From positions 611,578-675,577 of the forward strand of contig CAVWDP010000002.1 of NCBI GenBank assembly GCA_963753835.1: a stretch of DNA of 64,000 nucleotides. The letters are read 5' to 3'. Position 1 is the first letter of the stretch, and every line of letters begins with the position of its first letter. The notes beneath the pieces were generated by a model, which was not told where the DNA came from, ran no database searches, and was given only the letters and a program-made list of their open reading frames with translations. This document shows positions 1 through 53,579 of the stretch, in pieces. This DNA comes from an uncultured Bacteroidales bacterium. GTDB lineage: Bacteria > Bacteroidota > Bacteroidia > Bacteroidales > B18-G4. A program made the position numbers and the translations under genes.

Positions 1-63
1 GTGCCGCGCCCTTCTTATTCCCGGGAAATGAGTTGTCATCCCGAGCGAAGCCGAGGGATCTCC
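1..63. repeat. Right half of a nested-palindrome intergenic element, truncated by the window edge
   Basis: gtgccgcgcccttctt...gtcatcccgagcgaagccgagggatc matches, in order and spacing, the right half of the element at 53518-53579 (gtgtgtcgcgccctttctt...gtcactccgagcgaagtcgagggg). Confidence 0.6.
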
Positions 64-39326: not shown

Positions 39327-41634
39327 TTAAAATTCATAAATTAATTCCCCCATAATAAAACGACCTGGAGGCAATTTGCCTTTTCGGTCAATGGTCATGT
39401 CATTAAAGATATTCTGTACGGTCAGGGACAATCCGATCCTTTGTGGAAGCTTTTTACTTAATTTTATGTTGAACAGATGATGTGGGTCGATATATTGGGT
39501 ATTTTCATCATCATACCATTCTTTCCCTATAAATTGCCAGTCGAACAGCACATTCACCACTTTGTTTTGCCAGTTGATGGCCGCACCGGCCATGTTGATC
39601 GGAACCTCTATCAAGGATTTCCCTGTTAGGTCTTTATCTTCATTTACCGGGTCTTCGAATTCAAGAATACACGAATGGTTAGTGCTATAGTTTGCACTGA
39701 AAACAAGGTTTGAAAGTATTTCCCAATTGAGTGTGATTTCAGCTCCAATGATCTCTATTTCGGTTATGTTCTGTCGCTGAAGAACAGGCTTCAGGTCTGC
39801 TCCACCAGTTTCAACAGAGTCGCCGGTAGATACAAAATATTGAAAGTCATGACCTCTTGAATAATATACAGATGGCTCGATGGAGATCTTGTCGATGATC
39901 ATCCAGGTCAGCCCCAGCTCATAGTTGACAAGGCGCTCCGGTTTCAGTTCAGGGTTGGCTAGTTTAAATCCTTTGGAAATCTTGCCTGACTTAACAAGGT
40001 CATCGACCTTAGGTGGCATAAAACCGGACGTTATTGAAGCATAGATCCCTAAATCCTGGCGAATCTGATATTGCAAGGCCAACTTTGGGCTAAACTGAAC
40101 CCAGGAATGCTTACCAAACATGGCTGAAACATCTTTGATGAACCCGGTGTTATTTGTAGGATTATAAACGTCCTGGAAGCCATCATAAAACAGGGCATAG
40201 TCAAACCTTAATCCTGCAATGACAGCTAATTTTTTGAAAATCAGGAATTCATCCTGTATAAATATACCAACAAAAAGCAGGTTTCCACCATACTGTACTT
40301 CATCCGTAGAAGTACGGTAAACCTGCCTGGCATCCAGATCCCCCAATTTAACTTCAAAACCGCTCGTAAACAGGTGATGGCGGAAGAAGACACGGGAAAG
40401 GTTGAGCCAGATCCCATAATCGTTTTTTGTTGAATTTGTCTCCGATAACTTGTATTTTCTTGAACTGCTGAAACTTTCATTCTGATTTTTGAAGTCTTCT
40501 ACCTGATAGTATAGCTTTGTATTCAGCTTGAATCTTCCAGGTTGTCCGGTAAAGCTTGAAAGAAGTATTTGACTGTTGTATTGGTCATATGATCCTTCTT
40601 CCTCATAAACCTGGGTACCTGTGCCAAATTTTCCATTATAAAGCCGATAGCTGATGTCAAGCGATGTTACAGTATCGAAGCGGTAACCGGCCAATAATCC
40701 CGCACTGTATTCAAACAGATCAGCTTTGGAGTCCATATGTATCACGGGTTTCTTCAGGTTCCAGGATATAGCCATCCCCTTTTCGGAGAAATCCGTTCAT
40801 TTTCCAGTAAAAACCTGATTCTTTATGCCGGCCAGCTCCGCCAAGATCAAGTGCCCCCCCATAAGTACCTAAAGACCCTCCAAAGGCGCTGACATTACCC
40901 TCAATGGGTTTGATGGGTTTTTTAGTCGTGATATTTATAACGCCTGCCATGGCATTGTTACCGTATATGGCAGAGCTGGGGCCTTTAACTATTTCAATGT
41001 TGTCGATCTGATTTGGTTCAATGAAATTCCAATTCACGGAGCCACCAGCGGCCTTATTCATGGGTACACCATCGAGCAGGATAAGTGTCCTGGAACTGCC
41101 CGGCAACCCACGCATGGTGACACTGGCACTTTTAGAAAAAATTCCCCAGGGCCTGTGTACATAAACATTGGCAATACCCCTGAGGAGATCATCGGTATTC
41201 AGGGCCGGGATCTGCTCAACCAGCTGCTTCGAGATCAGGCCAACCCTGGCCGGCATCAAAGAAAGTTTTCTCCTGGTAAGTGTTGCTGTGATGGTAACAG
41301 GATCGATCTCGACGACCACCGGCCGTACCATGAAGCTTAGTTCAGCGGTTTCAGTATGCAGGTCAATTTGTGTGTTGTAATCAAGATAGCCAATATGCGA
41401 GATAGATAATGTATATGTTCCTGAAGGAAGTTCAGGAAAAGTGAAAAGTCCTTTGCTATCAGTTACGGTACCAAGCTGCAGCTCCCCGATGATCACATGA
41501 GCATCGGTTAACGGACTTTTACTATAGGCATCCATCACCCTTCCTTTCAGCAAAAGGTCTCCGTCTGCCTTTGTGCTTTGCTGAAAAATGAGGAGGGATA
41601 TCCCAAATAATAAAATAGTCAGGAACCGACTCAT
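39327..41634 (-). pseudogene. TonB-dependent receptor (CarboxypepD_reg + plug + barrel), one frameshift near 40733-40745
   Basis: The N-terminal ORF (40720-41634) has the signal, LKGRVMD..., and a plug (TMRGLPGSSRTLILLDGVPMN). The barrel ORF (39327-40775) ends ...GRFIMGELIYEF. The two overlap in different frames. Confidence 0.8.
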
Positions 41635-42528
41635 CTATGGTTGGGTTTTTAGGCTGATGTTCACGCTGCCCTCCTGGGCTCCATTTACTGCATTGACTTT
41701 GAAGATTCCCAGCCTGCCTTCCTGGGTACGGAAAGTGTAGATATCATCAAGCTTCAGTTTCTTGGCCTTCCTCTTAGCTTCCCCTTCATCATAATTGGCA
41801 ATGATGATACTGTCGTTTATAGCGTTATTGAAGTCATCTGCCGCGAGAGATGTTTTCATATAACGTGTTGTATTTATTGATTCCCAGTTGGCAGGATTAG
41901 TAGGAAAGATACCATCTTCAATATTGGCACCCGGTGAGGCAATGGTGTTCTTGTCGATATCATCATAAAAACATAGCATATCGATCCCGGCCTGTAGTGA
42001 AGTATCAGCATCAACGACCTGGTAGAAGTACATCATATTGTTGGCGATATCAAAGCATCCACCAGATTGCTGATTGTCCTGTGCCCCGAATTCAACAGGG
42101 CCATATTCCACGAGAGGAGTATATTGTGCATTGGTGTCCAGGCTTATTTTAATGCTTGTTGATGCAGCATTGCCTTCGCTGTCGCGAACGATAAAATTCC
42201 AATCTTCAACAGGGGCAAGGGTTTTTATAAATATCCCTTCCCACACAAAGTAGGAAGTATTCATACCCGTGTCGAAATACCTGCTGACGCTATCTGAATA
42301 CACTTCGATAAGGAAATTGGTAATGTTCAGGTCGCTGCCCTGCATCAATACCTTCAGGCGGATATCACTTCCTGAAGAAAGTATGGTATCACCAAAAATA
42401 TATCCGTTTTCTTCTACCAGCACGAGGTCAGGAGGGAGATGTTCTACCGTTTTTTTGCAGGAAAAGCTTATGATGATGAGCATAGCCAGAAGGCCCGGCA
42501 TGATCAGGTAGTTGGGTGATCTTGTCAT
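41635..42528 (-). CDS. Hypothetical lipoprotein
   Basis: MTRSPNYLIMPGLLAMLIIISFSC lipobox. Its stop codon abuts the TBDR start codon. Confidence 0.5.
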   Translation of the reverse strand: MTRSPNYLIMPGLLAMLIIISFSCKKTVEHLPPDLVLVEENGYIFGDTILSSGSDIRLKVLMQGSDLNITNFLIEVYSDSVSRYFDTGMNTSYFVWEGIFIKTLAPVEDWNFIVRDSEGNAASTSIKISLDTNAQYTPLVEYGPVEFGAQDNQQSGGCFDIANNMMYFYQVVDADTSLQAGIDMLCFYDDIDKNTIASPGANIEDGIFPTNPANWESINTTRYMKTSLAADDFNNAINDSIIIANYDEGEAKRKAKKLKLDDIYTFRTQEGRLGIFKVNAVNGAQEGSVNISLKTQP

Positions 42529-42532
42529 GTTG

Positions 42533-43117
42533 TTATTGTTCGCTTGATTTAATAAAAGAGTTCTTAATGCTATATAAACCATAACCTAGCATGCCACCCA
42601 GCATTCCGAAAAGGAAGAAACTCAGGATGGTGTACGCAACACCAAATTTTACAAATGCCATATAAGGATGCCCTGATACCAGGTTCACCAGGAGGCGACT
42701 CAGGGGAATACACATATAAGCCATCCCTGATGCTATAGAGATTACAAATAATAGGCGAGATCTTTCCTTCCCAGCTAAATAAAACAGGTCAAGCACGATA
42801 CCAGGGAGCAAATAACTGAATGAATGTAAAACGGTTCCCTGTCCGATACCTGGGATCAGGAGCATGATACCAACACCAAGCATAGCCATCAAGCCTGCAT
42901 ACCTGATATCAGATGACAGGCGAACGAGAGAGATGATAGCCATGAACTCAAGTCCGTGGTGTCCGGGAATATTCAAAGGGATCCTTAAACTAAAATGCAA
43001 GTATGTTGCCAGTGCGCCTCCCATGACTAAAAGGAACAATTCCAGAACCAGTGGAATACTCCGGCTAAGAGATTGACCGGATGATGTCTTTATGGGTAAG
43101 TTTCCATTCATATTCAT
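42533..43117 (-). CDS. Hypothetical polytopic membrane protein (His-containing loop PGHHGLEF)
   Basis: 194 aa with five or six hydrophobic segments. No confident family. Confidence 0.5.
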   Translation of the reverse strand: MNMNGNLPIKTSSGQSLSRSIPLVLELFLLVMGGALATYLHFSLRIPLNIPGHHGLEFMAIISLVRLSSDIRYAGLMAMLGVGIMLLIPGIGQGTVLHSFSYLLPGIVLDLFYLAGKERSRLLFVISIASGMAYMCIPLSRLLVNLVSGHPYMAFVKFGVAYTILSFFLFGMLGGMLGYGLYSIKNSFIKSSEQ

Positions 43118-43182
43118 CGTGTATTTCAGTTTTTTGAGTGATTAAGATAGCTTTATGATCTTTTAATATTGGTCGTACCCAT

Positions 43183-43827
43183 TCATGTATTGATATCCTT
43201 AGCATCTTCCAGGGGATGTTCTCCATCCAATGAGCTAATATTATCCAGGGCCAGTACTTCTTTTATTTCGCGTATGCTGAATACGCCGGCTTTCATATCG
43301 CGTAGTTCTTTGATCCCTCTTCGCCAGATAAACCTTCCATCGTTTCCACTTGCCCGCAGGCCAACAGCCGCCAGGGCGCCAATGATCCCTTCATGATTGC
43401 CGGTAAATCCCTTCAAATAAATATTTGTTTGCTTTGCCAACGCCGTGGCATTATACATATTCAGGACTTTGATCTTGGCTGCCAGTCCCCAATCGATAAT
43501 TTGTTCGTTTACCCCGTCAAATGAGGCAACACAGAGTCCTGCATCAGAACCTGGGGCGCTATATGCAGTTAGATGATCAGCACACAAATCCGTCACAGCA
43601 TTTACATTACTGCACATGAGGTTGATGCAGGCTGAACTGTTCTGAGAAGTGTACCTTATGGCCGGGTCAACAAATAGCTGGTGTCTCGTGATTCCGCTCA
43701 CCTTGCCCATATTTGTTGCTTCCAGTTTGTGGGCGAGTTGCCGGGCCAGGAACCCGGTACCCCGGCTGTTGGCATTATCAGTGTCATCGATGCCTATCAA
43801 CAGATTTATGTAGTTGTCATGATCCAT
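43183..43827 (-). CDS. Stand-alone TiaS N-terminal (DUF1743 / TCKD-like) domain protein
   Basis: 214 aa from ATG 43827. LIGIDDTDNANSRGTGFLA and GIIGALAAVG resemble, as I recall them, the GIDDTDS...GMCTTYLA and GLIGALAAVG motifs of archaeal tRNA-Ile2 agmatidine synthetase TiaS. Confidence 0.55.
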   Translation of the reverse strand: MDHDNYINLLIGIDDTDNANSRGTGFLARQLAHKLEATNMGKVSGITRHQLFVDPAIRYTSQNSSACINLMCSNVNAVTDLCADHLTAYSAPGSDAGLCVASFDGVNEQIIDWGLAAKIKVLNMYNATALAKQTNIYLKGFTGNHEGIIGALAAVGLRASGNDGRFIWRRGIKELRDMKAGVFSIREIKEVLALDNISSLDGEHPLEDAKDINT

Positions 43828-43840
43828 CCGGCAAGCCTGA

Positions 43841-44221
43841 TTACTGGTTTTCCATTTTCTTTTTAAGTTCCAGATAAGCTTCTTCAACTGCATCATCCAG
43901 CTTTTGCTGAAGGGCTGCATAAGCTTCAAGCAGTTTCAAAGCAGCCGGAGTCAACAATGATTGTCCACCTTCCTTTCCACCCCTTGTTTTTTCGGTTAGA
44001 TCATATCCCAGCAATGTTTCTGCCTTTTTCAGGTCACCCCAGGCCTTACGGTAACTGATGCCTGTATCTTCTGCAGCAGATTTCAGGGAACCCTTATCCC
44101 TGACCCCAAGAAGCAATGCATACACCTCTTCTGAGATGATACCCTCACCACTCATGGATGACAACCATAGCTTGTAGTTCAGCAGTACGTTAAAACGATT
44201 TGATTTACCTCTTTTACCCAT
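43841..44221 (-). CDS. ModE N-terminal-domain (wHTH) regulator lacking Mop/TOBE domains
   Basis: GSLKSAAEDTGISYRKAWGDLKKAE...EKTRGGKEGGQSLLTPAALKLL parallels E. coli ModE GSISQGAKDAGISYKSAWDAI...ERATGGKGGGGAVLT. The C-terminus is a short coiled-coil-like tail. Confidence 0.75.
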   Translation of the reverse strand: MGKRGKSNRFNVLLNYKLWLSSMSGEGIISEEVYALLLGVRDKGSLKSAAEDTGISYRKAWGDLKKAETLLGYDLTEKTRGGKEGGQSLLTPAALKLLEAYAALQQKLDDAVEEAYLELKKKMENQ

Positions 44222-44241: not shown

Positions 44242-44266
44242 CGTTATGCAAAGATATACATATCGG
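44242..44266. promoter_or_regulatory. ModE-box-like dyad, site 1
   Basis: cGTTATGCA-aagata-TACATATCgg. 9-6-9 architecture. 19 of 22 positions are identical to site 2. Confidence 0.55.
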
Positions 44267-44270
44267 CAGG

Positions 44271-44278
44271 CAAATTTA
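44271..44278 (-). promoter_or_regulatory. -7 box TAAATTTG (minus strand) for the modE-like operon
   Basis: caaattta on the plus strand. The dyad lies between this box and the ATG at 44221. Confidence 0.4.
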
Positions 44279-44402
44279 TAAAAAGACGAATACACACAAA
44301 AGCAAAGAAGGTTTTTTTATTCAGAAAATTATAGTGCTTACCATTGAACATTGTACACATTTATATGTTGTTAGGGTAATACCATCACGAAAACCTCGTA
44401 AA

Positions 44403-44897
44403 ATGAAAAAGATATTCAAGATCATAGCAGTGTTTGTCCTGGCAGGATTTATAAATATAGCTGCCTTTGCACATTGTGAAGTACCCTGTGGGATTTATAC
44501 GGACCATCTGCGCATTGAATTGATCAAAGAGCACATCATGACTATTGAGAAAGCCATGATCCAGATTGAGACATTGTCTTCAGAAGAAGAGATTAACTAT
44601 AACCAGCTTGTCAGGTGGATCGATACCAAGGAGCATCATGCCAACCTCATACAGGAAATAGCAGAGCAATATTTCATGACTCAGCGAATCAAACCAGTTG
44701 ACCCCGAAAATGAAGAAGCGTATAATAAATATATTGCCCAGCTGACACTGGCGCATGAGATGCTGATCTACTCGATGAAGACCAAGCAGTCGACGGATCT
44801 CAAATACACAGAGAAATTAAGTGCCACTGTAGATAAGTTCGCGGAAGCTTACTTTGGTCCTGAAGACCAGAAACACCTTCAGGAACACAAGCACTAA
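44403..44897 (+). CDS. sodN: Nickel superoxide dismutase with Sec-type signal peptide
   Basis: Ni-hook HCEVPCGIY (His1, Cys2, Cys6, Tyr9) follows directly after MKKIFKIIAVFVLAGFINIAAFA. The upstream extension to 44223 in the track ORF is rejected. Confidence 0.85.
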   Translation: MKKIFKIIAVFVLAGFINIAAFAHCEVPCGIYTDHLRIELIKEHIMTIEKAMIQIETLSSEEEINYNQLVRWIDTKEHHANLIQEIAEQYFMTQRIKPVDPENEEAYNKYIAQLTLAHEMLIYSMKTKQSTDLKYTEKLSATVDKFAEAYFGPEDQKHLQEHKH

Positions 44898-44977
44898 AGC
44901 ATAGTCTGATCACTCAGATTATTTTTGGTTTTGTTTGATTCTAAAAGGGCCGACGGGAGTTGGTCCTTTTTTTTATA

Positions 44978-45130
44978 AACCCTAAATCCTAATACCTAAA
45001 CTCTAAACAAAATTCAAGGTCAAAATTCCAATTGACCTCATCTCCTAAATCCCCTCATCTAAAAGAGAGGGGGACTTTTTTAGAATTTAAATAATTTGAG
45101 CTTGTTTCGAATTTAGAGATTAGGACTTAG
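44978..45130. repeat. Inverted pair of CCTAA..TCTAAA..(T)CGAAACAA..TTCAA(A) family repeats flanking a hairpin
   Basis: Left arm 44978-45035. Right arm 45096-45130 in inverse orientation. Central CCCCTC-atctaaaaga-GAGGGG followed by a T-run. The same family occurs at 3288-3350 and 6771-6835. Confidence 0.6.
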
Positions 45131-45137
45131 TATTTTC

Positions 45138-47294
45138 CTATTCCTGGTGTGGTTTAACTACTTCAATCACTTCCGGCAGGTCCATCCCAAGTTTTTCAAG
45201 GTGTGAAATTTTAGGAACACCATTCTTTGTCCATCCCCTGCGCGTGTATACAGCATCAAGCAGTTTTTCATACTGAGATTCCCTGTATTCCCTCATGATG
45301 GCTTTCTTTTCAGCAGTAGTTTTGCCTTCCGGATCAACACCAAGGATCTCTTTCAATTGTTTGTCGTAGCGTTCTGCCCTTGATTCGTATTCTTCATCTG
45401 TTACAGGTCCTGCAGCACGATATGGCTGAGCATCAAACTCCCTGGTTCCATACCCTCTCCTGAGGTTGAAAATCCTTTGGAAGTTATATACACGTTCCGA
45501 CATGGTGATCATTTCTTCCTTACTGAAAGGTTTATCCGTGACAGCAGTGTATATGGTCACATAGTTGTCGACATGCTCAGGCACCTTTGCAGGCTCATCT
45601 GTTTCAGCATTATTTTCCGGTTCAACATCGTTCCATGGAAGTTTACATAAACCAACCAGACCGAACCAGGTACGGAACATCGGGAAGTAATGTAATGCTT
45701 CTGCTTTATCTTCAAAAGTAGGGATCTGGTTATTCACCATGTCCATGAAAATGAGCCAGGCTTCATCATGCTGAGGCCCTTTGTTGGTCATTGCAAAACC
45801 TCCCTGTTGGGCGAGAGATTCCTTGGAAACATATTCTGAGTATTCCAGGCCCTTATTTTCCATTCCAATGTCCTGGAGGAAATCGGCCTCACCCCATCCT
45901 TTTTCAATGAACATTTCTTTCATCTTGCGAACTCCAAGCCCGGCAACCAGGCCAAAGCCTTCGCCGCGGGCAAGCATGTGCAACAATTCCATTGCTGAGT
46001 CAGCATTACCAAAGTTGAGTTTCAGTCCACCGGTCCGCTCTTCATTCAGGATGCCGCTCTCGTAACATTCCATAATAAAGGCAAGCAATGTACCCCAGGT
46101 AATGGTGCAAATACCATAAGTATCGCAATAGAAGTTTGCTTCAATAACATAGTCGGGATTGAAGATCCCGCAATTGGAGCCCAGGCCACCGGCATTTTCA
46201 TATTCTGGTCCGTCAACGATCACTTGTTGCCCGGCATAAGGACCTGTTCTTACCAGATATTCATCCACTCCCTTTGCACAGGCCATATTACAGCCAATCC
46301 AGCATCCATCGGGTATGCCCTGGGTAAAGCGTGCCTTCCAAACGTCTCCATGGATGGCGTCGGCTTCAGGATGGCTTCCGAACTTATAATTGTGTACAGG
46401 AAGCAGGTCGTAATCATTCATAATATTAACGAGGTGGGCTGTACCTTTAGTCCTCATTTCGGCCTGATCGTCATCAAGTTCACGCATCTCCTTATTGAAG
46501 GTCTTTCCCCTTTCCATGATGGCCTGCAGGTCTTTCACATCATTCAGGTTACCCTTTACACCCGGAATCCGGCAAACGATGGCCTTGATCTTCTTGTCGC
46601 GGAAAACAGTTCCAATGCCACCACGGCCGGCTTGTTTCAGCCTTACTTTCTTCCGTTTAGGATCGTAGAAGCTAAAATTGAGCATCCCGATCAATGAGTT
46701 TCCGGCAGCAGCACCCGTTGAAACCACAGCAATATTTTTCTTGTCTCTGTCATCAACAGCATACATCTCTGTCAACACCTCAACAAGCTCATGGCTATCC
46801 ATGGGCTCCAGCGGTGCTTCAAAGATCTCCACACTGTGATCGACACCGTCGATATAGATCATGATGTCTTTTTCAGCTTTTCCCTGCAATTCAATGGCAT
46901 CAAAGCCTGAGAATTTGAGGAAAGGCCCAAAGAATCCGCCAACATTGCTATCAATTGGAATGTTGGTTTGGGGAGAAATGGAAACACAAATAGATTTTCC
47001 TGATCCTGAGTACTGGGTGATCCCGCCAATTGGGCCGGACGAGATATTGATTTCGTTTTCCGGGTCATTCCACTTAGTATCCGGTTTTGTGCCGTCCCAC
47101 AAAAGCCGTAATCCATAACCCTTTCCACCTATGAACTTCTCTTTCATCTCGGCAGGAACTGCCTTTTCCTTGATCTCATTATCAGAAACATTAATGTAGA
47201 GGGTCTTGTCATTATAGCCCCTGAAAATTGGTTTCCATTCATATGACCATTTCGCCAGTGTTTTGTGGGCGTTTTTCATTTCCTCGATATTCAT
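45138..47294 (-). CDS. aor: Aldehyde:ferredoxin oxidoreductase family (tungsto/molybdopterin) enzyme, long YdhV-like form
   Basis: 718 aa. AOR N-domain (GGKGYGLRLLW), Cys cluster DGCWIGCNMAC, and a large pterin-binding C-terminal region. Confidence 0.8.
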   Translation of the reverse strand: MNIEEMKNAHKTLAKWSYEWKPIFRGYNDKTLYINVSDNEIKEKAVPAEMKEKFIGGKGYGLRLLWDGTKPDTKWNDPENEINISSGPIGGITQYSGSGKSICVSISPQTNIPIDSNVGGFFGPFLKFSGFDAIELQGKAEKDIMIYIDGVDHSVEIFEAPLEPMDSHELVEVLTEMYAVDDRDKKNIAVVSTGAAAGNSLIGMLNFSFYDPKRKKVRLKQAGRGGIGTVFRDKKIKAIVCRIPGVKGNLNDVKDLQAIMERGKTFNKEMRELDDDQAEMRTKGTAHLVNIMNDYDLLPVHNYKFGSHPEADAIHGDVWKARFTQGIPDGCWIGCNMACAKGVDEYLVRTGPYAGQQVIVDGPEYENAGGLGSNCGIFNPDYVIEANFYCDTYGICTITWGTLLAFIMECYESGILNEERTGGLKLNFGNADSAMELLHMLARGEGFGLVAGLGVRKMKEMFIEKGWGEADFLQDIGMENKGLEYSEYVSKESLAQQGGFAMTNKGPQHDEAWLIFMDMVNNQIPTFEDKAEALHYFPMFRTWFGLVGLCKLPWNDVEPENNAETDEPAKVPEHVDNYVTIYTAVTDKPFSKEEMITMSERVYNFQRIFNLRRGYGTREFDAQPYRAAGPVTDEEYESRAERYDKQLKEILGVDPEGKTTAEKKAIMREYRESQYEKLLDAVYTRRGWTKNGVPKISHLEKLGMDLPEVIEVVKPHQE

Positions 47295-47330
47295 ATTTTA
47301 TGCTGTTTTAGTGATTTGTACAAGAGAAAA

Positions 47331-47338
47331 CAAAAATA
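47331..47338 (-). promoter_or_regulatory. -7 box TATTTTTG (minus strand) for aor
   Basis: caaaaata on the plus strand, 36 nt upstream of the ATG at 47294. Confidence 0.4.
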
Positions 47339-47381
47339 TTAATTTAAAGCTATCATCTTCCTTAAATTACTTTCTAAAAAA

Positions 47382-47407
47382 CTGATATGCAAACAAATGC
47401 ATATCGG
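47382..47407. promoter_or_regulatory. ModE-box-like dyad, site 2
   Basis: ctGATATGCA-aacaaa-TGCATATCgg. Perfect 8-bp inverted repeat with a 6-nt spacer. Confidence 0.55.
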
Positions 47408-47469: not shown

Positions 47470-47497
47470 AGTCACCCTTCGACTTCGCTCAGGATGA
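47470..47497 (+). repeat. Solo copy of the CTTCGACTTCGCTC(A/G)GGATGAC REP-like motif
   Basis: gtcacccttcgacttcgctcaggatgac, compared with 49701-27, 53437-60, the inverse of 53556-79, and the inverse of 35-60. Confidence 0.75.
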
Positions 47498-47501
47498 CAA
47501 T

Positions 47502-47599: not shown

Positions 47600-48184
47600 A
47601 TGATATTGCAGGAAATAAAAAATAAACTGAAGGACAAGGTTGTAGGCATTGCAGGTTGTGGTGGACTTGGTTCTAATGCTGCCATAGCACTGGCTCGATC
47701 TGGCATTGGAAAGCTTGTTTTGGCTGATTTCGACAGGGTTGAACAGGCCAACCTAAATCGCCAGTACTTTTTCAGGGAGCAGCTTGGTGAATTTAAGGCT
47801 GAAGCCTTACGGGATAATATCCTTAGGATTGATCAGCATGTAAGTGTAGAAACACATGTGCTTAACCTTGAACCTGACAGTATAGTCACATTCTTTGCTG
47901 ATTGTGATGTGATTGTGGAGGCCTTTGATGTGGATATTGCAAAACAGATGATCATTGAAACAGTCCTGGCAGATATGCCTGATAAATATATAATCTCAGG
48001 GCAGGGAGTAGCCGGATATGGGAATAATGAAGAGATCAAAACGCAAAGGTTGGGGAAGTTGATCATTGTAGGAGATGGGGAAACGGAAGTTTCGGAAAAT
48101 AAACCACCTTTGGGTCCCAAAGTGGCAGCCATTGCAAATATGCAGGCCAACATTGTGCTGGAGATCCTGCTTAATGGAGAGTAG
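47600..48184 (+). CDS. thiF: Short ThiF-family (E1-like) sulfur-carrier adenylyltransferase
   Basis: 194 aa. GCGGLGSN nucleotide loop, NLNRQ, EAFD...K, and a C-terminal PKVAAIANMQAN, as in the roughly 200-aa ThiF family. Confidence 0.75.
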   Translation: MILQEIKNKLKDKVVGIAGCGGLGSNAAIALARSGIGKLVLADFDRVEQANLNRQYFFREQLGEFKAEALRDNILRIDQHVSVETHVLNLEPDSIVTFFADCDVIVEAFDVDIAKQMIIETVLADMPDKYIISGQGVAGYGNNEEIKTQRLGKLIIVGDGETEVSENKPPLGPKVAAIANMQANIVLEILLNGE

Positions 48185-48185
48185 T

Positions 48186-48389
48186 ATGGAAATTTTACTG
48201 AACAACCGCAACGAAAATATTGATAGGGGAGAGATCACACTGGAAGAACTCATCCAGCACAAGAATTTTACTTTCAAATTACTTGTCACCAAAGTTAACG
48301 GTCGACTGGTAAAGAAGGATGACAGGGGGACTTTCATCATCCGGGAAGGGGATGAGGTGAATGTGCTGCATATGATATCAGGGGGATGA
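48186..48389 (+). CDS. thiS: ThiS/MoaD-type sulfur-carrier protein
   Basis: 67 aa ending in ...VLHMISGG (C-terminal Gly-Gly). Its ATG lies 1 nt after the thiF-like stop. Confidence 0.75.
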   Translation: MEILLNNRNENIDRGEITLEELIQHKNFTFKLLVTKVNGRLVKKDDRGTFIIREGDEVNVLHMISGG

Positions 48390-49700: not shown

Positions 49701-49727
49701 GGATCCTTCGACTTCGCTCAGGATAAG
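49701..49727 (+). repeat. Solo copy of the CTTCGACTTCGCTCAGGAT REP-like motif
   Basis: ggatccttcgacttcgctcaggataag. Confidence 0.7.
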
Positions 49728-49755
49728 TTTTGGGTGTTGAGTGTTGGGTGTTGGA

Positions 49756-53436: not shown

Positions 53437-53579
53437 TCCCTCGACTTCGCTCGGGATGACAACGGCTAAAGTGTTTTGAGAAAGAAGGGCGCGACACACA
53501 TATTGAGACTTTCAATGGTGTGTCGCGCCCTTTCTTGTTTTATTTAAGAGAACTTGTCACTCCGAGCGAAGTCGAGGGG
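53437..53579. repeat. 143-bp nested palindrome (MITE/REP-composite-like) between convergent genes
   Basis: Outer arms tccctcgacttcgctcgggatgac (53437-60) and gtcactccgagcgaagtcgagggg (53556-79). Inner arms agaagggcgcgacacac (53483-99) and gtgtgtcgcgccctttct (53518-35). Central ATTGA-gactt-TCAAT. Confidence 0.85.

Follow-up and report, generated by a model that had tools for sequence, protein, structure and literature searches.

Conserved putative ModE-type operators at the promoters of a Mop-less ModE-like gene and of aor in Bacteroidales

We analysed a 64,000-nucleotide (nt) stretch of DNA, hereafter the window, from an uncultured Bacteroidales bacterium (GTDB lineage B18-G4; GenBank assembly GCA_963753835.1, contig CAVWDP010000002.1, positions 611,578 to 675,577). 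Two near-identical dyads stand in it, one upstream of a gene for a ModE-like protein of 126 amino acids (aa) and one upstream of aor, which encodes an aldehyde:ferredoxin oxidoreductase. From their sequence and their preservation in relatives we conclude that the dyads are real, strongly conserved and of classic ModE-box type, with the ModE-like protein as putative binder. As a whole, the explanation that we consider probable is that the 126-aa protein, encoded beside the first dyad and lacking the Mop domains, binds both operators, represses its own operon and activates aor.

Site 1 is cGTTATGCAaagataTACATATCgg (44242-44266) and site 2 is ctGATATGCAaacaaaTGCATATCgg (47382-47407); both were read directly from the window sequence, and letters and coordinates are those given in a preliminary description of this DNA. 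The perfect 8-bp inverted repeat noted there in site 2 is present. The identity between the sites, put at 19 of 22 positions, needs correction: a recount gives four mismatches, that is 20 identities over 24 aligned positions and 18 of 22 over the positions originally quoted. A degenerate 24-nt pattern allowing up to three mismatches finds the two sites and nothing else in the 64 kb, where 0.02 matches are expected. Likewise, a scoring matrix built from sites of other genomes only, with the window sites left out, assigns 31.6 bits to site 1 and 30.9 bits to site 2, against 20.3 for the top score among 30 shuffled windows. The third-best position in the window scores 4.0 bits and lies inside a coding region; a weaker third site, for example before the lipoprotein gene of the operon described below, was rejected on this ground. 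Because the pattern and matrix scans return only the two sites, the earlier statement that the 64 kb hold no other copy stands.

For E. coli ModE, Rodionov et al. (2004, PMC545781) give the consensus atCGnTATATA-N6-TATATAnCGat, in agreement with the box ATCGnTATATA-N6-TATATAnCGAT named in the preliminary description. Set against it, both dyads show the architecture CGnTAT(A/G)(T/C)A-N6-T(A/G)(T/C)ATAnCG. They have in common with the E. coli operators the 9-6-9 dyad with CG-n-TAT...ATA-n-CG and differ from them in the core of the half-site, which is TATGCA here and TATATA in E. coli. ModE of Methanosarcina acetivorans shifts RTTATGT-N8-RCATAAY in gels, and mutating its half-sites abolishes binding (PMC12327845). 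Written in that register our site becomes G-(A/T)TATG-N10-CATA(A/T)-C, with an identical 22-bp register and an identical core (TTATG...CATAA). Judged by sequence, the window dyads and the M. acetivorans ModE box are the same box. The ModE-box architecture proposed for the dyads is thereby borne out against both the bacterial (PMC545781) and the archaeal (PMC12327845) boxes.

We next turn to relatives of the window. The comparative set comprises 80 loci from 80 Bacteroidales/Bacteroidota species, all of them metagenome-assembled genomes and together 1.24 Mb, which were retrieved by alignment of homologues of the regulator; identity of the ModE-like protein across the loci is 41-89%. The core CGnTATG-N10-CATAnCG, counted with at most one mismatch in its 12 specified positions, occurs 96 times in this set, versus 1.7 times in shuffled sequences (maximum 4) and once in the reversed sequence, and nearly all copies stand at two places, upstream of the ModE-like ATG and upstream of aor. 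Enough upstream sequence for a scan of the 120 nt before the ModE-like ATG was available in 79 loci, at 43-89% protein identity. A site was found there in 53 of the 79 species (41 exact, 12 with one or two mismatches), 2-45 nt before the ATG, whereas about 1% of random windows score as well. At aor, all 34 loci whose aor start and upstream DNA lie on the contig carry the site, and, of the 32 sites that have one mismatch or none, 28 are 81-91 nt from the ATG. When the aor upstream regions are aligned, the dyad and the -7 box stay identical and the remaining intergenic DNA has diverged. The dyads are thus not chance occurrences, given 96 core matches where about 1.7 are expected, and given their orthologous placement. 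The preliminary description had proposed to scan related genomes for enrichment of the motif before orthologous aor, modE-like and TBDR genes; by the numbers above, the motif is neither at background frequency in these loci nor missing from relatives.

The aor operator has a peculiarity of its own. Its distal half is perfect, and its promoter-proximal half is always without the terminal CG, reading TGCATATCA, TGCATATTG or TGCATATCT and ending in CA, TG or CT. This asymmetry, with the CG-less half at 47383-47391 in the window, is conserved in 32 loci.

In all these sites the half-site letters (CG, TATG, CATA, CG) are constant, the spacers are free, and no compensatory changes occur. Because the half-site letters are kept while the spacers vary freely, we read the dyad as a protein operator and not as an RNA helix. 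It could be argued that the dyads are RNA hairpins or copies of a dispersed palindromic repeat: the operon mRNA would carry site 1 at its 5' end, and metagenomes contain a family of perfect 24-30-nt palindromes with the same half-sites as the dyads. We find this very hard to credit, since it is sequence and not pairing that is conserved, the aor transcript does not include site 2, which precedes the aor promoter, the spacers in the window are not palindromic, none of the 57 copies of the repeat stands beside a ModE or WtpA gene, and no Rfam match was obtained. A Moco/Tuco riboswitch or other RNA family was rejected as an explanation: no family reached its gathering score in the 64 kb, and the region 43.7-47.7 kb gave only noise at E <=1.

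The palindromes came from a motif-only scan of metagenomes for the perfect box CGWTATGCA-N6-TGCATAWCG, made without reference to the regulator. It returned 121 hits, of which 57 belong to the unrelated perfect-palindrome family and were set aside. Among the 64 hits kept, 27 adjoin genes for ModE-family regulators, either short or full-length, for binding proteins of WtpA/ModA-like type, for P5C (L-glutamate gamma-semialdehyde) dehydrogenases or for TonB-dependent receptors (TBDR); some others lie beside proteins that weakly match molybdopterin-oxidoreductase domains or beside an ABC ATPase. The ModE box is thus found, conserved across species, in promoters of genes related to molybdenum and tungsten, both in the comparative set (53/79 and 34/34) and, before wtpA, P5C dehydrogenase and TBDR genes, in the motif-only scan. 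The palindromic elements set aside measure 24-30 nt (e.g. ggcCGTTATGCAAAGCTTTGCATAACGgcc; loci L081 9136-9159, L098 338-361 and 3845-3868, L085 and L088), carry flanking sub-repeats and occur on contigs of ~40-70% GC. They look like a dispersed hairpin repeat or the end of a mobile element that shares the half-site by coincidence.

The placement of the dyads relative to the promoters is conserved as well. In the window, site 1 lies between a minus-strand -7 box of Bacteroidetes type (TAnnTTTG) and the ModE-like ATG at 44221, as described before, and is 20 nt from that ATG. Since 5 nt separate the -7 box from the beginning of the dyad, the dyad spans the region where transcription starts. Site 2 is 44 nt from the aor -7 box and 193 nt from the thiF ATG, close to the ~45 and ~190 nt reported earlier. 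Of 47 ModE-like promoters, 30 have a -7 box whose end lies 4-5 nt ahead of the dyad; in 8 the box starts 10-11 nt after it, so that in the latter the operator lies over the -33 region. Both arrangements, with the start site or the -33 region covered, are by position repressor geometries. In 31 of 32 aor promoters, 40-45 nt separate the dyad from the start of the -7 box downstream of it, which puts the dyad centre at about -65 to -70, clear of the core promoter, in an activator-like position. The pairing of a repressor geometry at the gene's own promoter with an activator-like geometry at aor, proposed for the window, is hence conserved.

Together these observations suggest the following circuit. 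The binder of both dyads is most likely the 126-aa ModE-like protein encoded beside site 1. Bound at site 1, 5 nt past the -7 box, it would block initiation and so autorepress an operon that consists of the genes for the ModE-like protein, a TiaS-kinase-like protein, an ECF-S-like membrane protein, a lipoprotein and a TonB-dependent receptor. Bound at the aor operator, upstream of the core promoter, it would most likely activate the gene of the tungsten-type aldehyde:ferredoxin oxidoreductase. The logic would be that of E. coli ModE, in which sufficiency of the metal represses uptake and switches on the users of the cofactor. As predicted here, the two systems have in common an operator over the start of an uptake operon and upstream sites at genes for cofactor-using enzymes. 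They differ in that the present promoters are of the Bacteroidetes -7/-33 kind and that an AOR-family tungsten enzyme and a TBDR cassette take the place of modABC as targets.

The regulator itself carries a ModE-type N-terminal winged-helix domain. It matches TIGR00637 (E 2.8e-19; 69 bits, under the curated cutoff of 98.5), PRK10676 (E 1.9e-10), the E. coli ModE structures 1B9M/1O7L (E 1.6e-8) and the 135-aa protein of 2IJL (E 3.5e-7). Homology to the E. coli ModE N-domain amounts to 35% identity over 83 aa, and the recognition helix reads SYRKAW in the Bacteroidales proteins versus SYKSAW in E. coli ModE. In contrast to E. coli ModE, the Bacteroidales protein lacks the di-Mop molybdate-sensing domain, a feature that the preliminary description had pointed out and that protein length, Pfam/NCBIfam matches and tblastn all bear out. 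By its domain content, then, the regulator is the ModE DNA-binding/dimerisation domain only.

Mop-less ModE proteins as such are already known, from Desulfovibrio (PMC545781) and from PDB 2IJL. Single-domain ModE genes were noted in 2004 in Desulfovibrio and D. psychrophila, and their sensing mechanism was called unclear (PMC545781). The Bacteroidales protein shares their single-domain layout; in the literature examined no operator or regulon is established for those stand-alone proteins, whereas here a canonical box comes with coherent conserved targets. The M. acetivorans protein differs in that it retains one Mop domain and has alternative nitrogenases as its main targets.

A regulator from another part of the genome, such as a full-length ModE, might instead bind the dyads, in which case the adjacent Mop-less protein would do something else. 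Desulfovibrio offers a precedent of sorts, its sites having first been assigned to a ModE consisting of the DNA-binding domain only (PMC545781). In our metagenome scan, several perfect boxes adjoin full-length ModE genes (~270 aa) in other taxa, and because the box is also found beside these genes it is not specific to the short proteins. The Desulfovibrio sites were reportedly later assigned to TunR. TunR has Mop-like sensor domains on a recombinase-type DNA-binding domain. TunR and TaoR of Desulfovibrio, which regulate tup and aor in response to tungstate (Kazakov 2013, Rajeev 2019; both cited in PMC12327845), resemble our system functionally, in controlling aor and tungstate/molybdate transport, and differ from it in their DNA-binding domains and motifs, which are unrelated. 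For Bacteroidales a different binder appears improbable: the promoter of the short gene carries the box in 53 of 79 species, at a fixed spacing from the -7 box, the recognition helix is conserved with ModE, and no second ModE homologue was found in the window or in the 80 loci, where tblastn gave one match per locus and one extra segment.

With the 126-aa protein as the preferred binder, the gene context in relatives suggests a metal as candidate signal. A link to molybdenum or tungsten is well supported, because wtpA, moeA-moaA and operons combining the cassette with wtpA adjoin the regulator gene there. The gene for the tungstate-binding protein WtpA (TIGR03730, 287 bits against a cutoff of 243) lies directly downstream of the regulator gene in 35 of the 80 loci. 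Likewise, moeA-moaA directly follow it in L040, L042, L043 and L062, and wtpA and the TBDR cassette form one operon behind it in L018, L070, L072 and L074. Linkage to molybdate/tungstate transport or cofactor genes is thus seen in relatives, and in the window it is confined to aor and the TBDR cassette. We infer from this context that the regulon responds to the metal, tungstate or molybdate being the candidate signal; nothing points to nickel, which had also been named.

The predicted regulon of relatives further includes aldehyde dehydrogenases. At the P5C dehydrogenase gene the box takes a repressor geometry in four genomes and at least eight metagenome contigs. The box is perfect and follows the -7 box at a distance of 4-5 nt; the genome sites are L040 16090-16113, L042 16312-16335, L043 16114-16137 and L070 8096-8119, and the metagenome loci are L087, L095, L103, L144, L153, L161, L177 and L195. 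In many loci the gene of an L-piperidine-6-carboxylate dehydrogenase shares a transcript with the regulator gene and wtpA. Secreted proteins of ~340-410 aa also recur behind operons of modE-like, wtpA and aldehyde dehydrogenase genes or beside perfect boxes of metagenomes (L017 11833-12849, L187, L127, L099/L158); they have weak or no Pfam matches, in some cases to a molybdopterin-oxidoreductase domain at E 1e-3 to 4e-7.

Several points weigh against the proposed circuit. An upstream site of good quality is missing from 26 of the 79 ModE-like genes, mostly the more distant ones, and the loci were gathered via the regulator gene, so that co-occurrence of regulator and motif at aor is no independent test. 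No wtpABC, mod or moa gene lies in the 64-kb window. Activation of aor is read from the position of its operator. The -33 element, tried as a sign of activator dependence at aor, is uninformative and was dropped, as TTTG occurs in 5 of 32 aor promoters versus 8 of 32 ModE-like promoters. No Mop/TOBE domain was found in the regulator, which ends at residue 126 and whose Pfam/NCBIfam matches cover the N-domain only. Within 10 kb of the regulator gene, tblastn with the E. coli ModE C-terminus and clostridial Mop (approximate query sequences) gave a single weak match across the 80 loci (E 0.005, in L051), which is probably the C-terminus of an ABC ATPase, and none in the window; a separate Mop/molbindin gene near the regulator was rejected accordingly. 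Moreover, E. coli ModE without its C-terminal Mop is described, in work cited in PMC12327845, as binding DNA independently of molybdate, and metal responsiveness therefore cannot be assumed.

Alternatively, the ModE-like protein might bind the dyads in a circuit that is not metal-responsive, where negative autoregulation would fix a set-point and aor would receive constitutive help. The missing Mop/TOBE domain, the single weak Mop-like match nearby in 80 loci and the behaviour of truncated E. coli ModE speak for such a circuit. So does M. acetivorans ModE, whose regulon includes molybdenum/tungsten transporters and which binds its box in gel shifts insensitively to molybdate in vitro (PMC12327845). 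The 64 kb also contain no Moco riboswitch that could give a cofactor signal. On the other hand, the regulon of relatives fits a metal circuit, since it joins a tungsten enzyme and aldehyde dehydrogenases that need no tungsten to cofactor synthesis and a tungstate-binding protein; the promoter geometries at the ModE-like operon and at aor are opposite; and the gene for a partner sensor could lie at any place in the genome. On balance we regard a circuit blind to the metal as rather unlikely. In the preferred, metal-responsive circuit, sensing without Mop might proceed through a separately encoded partner or a ligand site not recognised so far, or the protein might take no ligand at all.

The operon under site 1 is the TBDR operon that the preliminary description had connected with the dyads: it is headed by the regulator gene itself. 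Behind that gene follow four others (Table 1), for a TiaS-fold protein, an ECF-S-like membrane protein, a lipoprotein and a TonB-dependent receptor. This cassette is co-conserved in ~28 of the 80 loci (L002-L012, L018, L034, L053, L055, L059, L068 and L070-L080), always after the ModE-like gene. Except for the receptor, its products have no Pfam family above threshold. The first has a predicted structure (AlphaFold pLDDT 89) for which Foldseek returns 3AMU, 5XOB and 4RVZ at E 1e-10 to 1e-9, with a root mean square deviation from TiaS structures of ~2.5 A over ~155 residues. It shows the TiaS TCKD fold with the N-terminal DDTD nucleotide motif, within which IGIDDTDN is invariant. It has none of the tRNA-binding domains of TiaS and is therefore not TiaS itself. 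For the 194-aa membrane protein (pLDDT 86) the best PDB folds are RibU (5KBW) and other S components, at a probability of 0.98-1.0 and a TM of 0.5-0.6 with a weak E of ~0.1; it has no sequence-family match, and no EcfA/T genes lie nearby. Five relatives carry a second ModE box before the lipoprotein gene (L034 3532-3555, L053 11764-11787, L068 11460-11483, L072 15931-15954, L077 11641-11664), 4-7 nt before the ATG in four of them and 126 nt before it in L077.

Two genes of the operon are interrupted in the window by 1-nt frameshifts, at 43205-43220 and 40730-40745, both at short homopolymers; the receptor is split between frames -2 and -3 when set against the L004 orthologue. Pseudogenisation of the operon was considered. 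The frameshifts are probably assembly errors and not marks of pseudogenes, because they fall at homopolymers and because an intact 253-aa protein (P0334), identical to the window reading apart from the frameshift, is present in another assembly. We read the cassette as a tungsten/molybdenum-related acquisition system whose substrate could be an oxyanion, a chelate or a cofactor-related molecule. We found no literature on TonB-dependent uptake of molybdate or tungstate in Bacteroidetes, or on a ModE regulon in Bacteroidales. To our knowledge, TonB-dependent uptake tied to tungsten or molybdenum is not an established pathway.

The genes around the two dyads had been called correctly in the preliminary description (ModE-like, sodN, aor, thiF, thiS), as domain and family searches show; of the proposed targets, two lack support. 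The aor product has tungsten enzymes (1AOR, 8C0Z) as its nearest solved relatives. The sodN gene adjoins the regulator gene in 15 of 80 loci at a variable 56-182 nt from the dyad, and no canonical -7 box for it was found in the window. The thiF/thiS pair is syntenic with aor in 26 loci, at a dyad-thiF distance of 96-395 nt, and its -7 box (47583) is 176 nt from site 2. We rejected both sodN and thiF/thiS as regulon members on their non-conserved spacing and promoter positions, since the dyads keep their place relative to the modE-like and aor promoters.

The thiF/thiS-like pair (47600-48389 in the window) is divergent to aor. NCBIfam names its members ThiF and ThiS; a MoeB/MoaD-like sulfur-carrier role in pterin cofactor synthesis, as opposed to thiamine, would fit them. 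A short intergenic repeat with the core GATCCYTCGRCTTCGCTCRGGATGACAA is present in the window in four copies, at 34-55(-), 47478-47499(+), 49707-49728(+) and 53440-53461(+), against a chance expectation of 0; one of them falls between site 2 and thiF, and L144 and L195 contain sequences like these. Elsewhere the window has ordinary Bacteroidales content, including components of the type IX secretion system, a gingipain-like protease, a 2-oxoacid:ferredoxin oxidoreductase and cell-wall genes.

Table 1. Operators, promoter elements and genes around the two dyads (window coordinates).
Feature	Position	Strand	Remarks
ModE-type operator 1, CGTTATGCA-AAGATA-TACATATCG	44242-44265	none	31.6 bits; at promoter of ModE-like operon
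ModE-type operator 2, aor direction CGATATGCA-TTTGTT-TGCATATCA	47383-47406	none	30.9 bits; upstream of aor core promoter
-7 box TAAATTTG (Bacteroidetes type, TAnnTTTG) of ModE-like operon	44271-44278	-	5 nt before site 1
-7 box TATTTTTG of aor promoter	47331-47338	-	44 nt downstream of operator 2
126-aa ModE N-terminal (winged-helix DNA-binding and dimerisation) protein without Mop/TOBE	43841-44221	-	TIGR00637, HTH_1; presumed dyad binder
TiaS-kinase-domain-like cytoplasmic protein, 253 aa in relatives, 214 aa here	43068-43827	-	weak PF22641 and TIGR03280 matches; frameshift near 43213
Integral membrane protein, 194 aa, invariant PGHHGLEFM	42533-43117	-	fold resembles ECF-transporter S components; no Pfam match
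Lipoprotein, unknown family (lipobox ...SFSC), TBDR partner	41635-42582	-	syntenic in ~23 loci
TonB-dependent receptor, 768-aa open reading frame in relatives, 304 + 482 aa here	39327-41634	-	Plug, CarboxypepD_reg, TonB_dep_Rec_b-barrel; frameshift near 40737
Aldehyde:ferredoxin oxidoreductase family enzyme (tungsto-/molybdo-pterin), 718 aa	45138-47294	-	AFOR_N and AFOR_C
sodN, Ni superoxide dismutase	44403-44897	+	
thiF-like, then ThiS-like open reading frame	47600-48184 (thiF)	+	

A system of this kind is already known and its lineage is new; what is unusual is that the regulator has no sensor domain and that its main target is a TonB-dependent cassette so far uncharacterised. The repressor geometry at the P5C dehydrogenase gene, taken with the activator-like placement at aor, suggests a cofactor-dependent switch between NAD-dependent aldehyde dehydrogenases (P5C, piperideine-6-carboxylate) and the ferredoxin-linked tungsten AOR. 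Carried further, the Mop-less ModE could be the master switch of an undescribed tungsten economy in anaerobic Bacteroidales. It would sense tungsten independently of Mop, repress a new TonB-dependent acquisition pathway made up of receptor, lipoprotein, ECF-S-like protein and TiaS-type kinase, and swap NAD-dependent semialdehyde dehydrogenases for the tungsten AOR. The cargo of that pathway may be tungstate, molybdate or a tungsten-related small molecule. We put this wider scheme forward tentatively, as a possibility that may well prove wrong.

The operators described here provide a concrete candidate regulon for DNA-binding-domain-only ModE proteins, long noted and functionally orphan, and extend the ModE box to Bacteroidota. 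They place four uncharacterised, co-conserved proteins in the field of tungsten and molybdenum, with candidate functions. The question of how molybdenum or tungsten status is read without a Mop domain can now be approached through one 126-aa protein and two defined operators. They further suggest that amino-acid-fermenting anaerobes of digesters and sediments may switch between aldehyde-oxidising isoenzymes in dependence on the cofactor.

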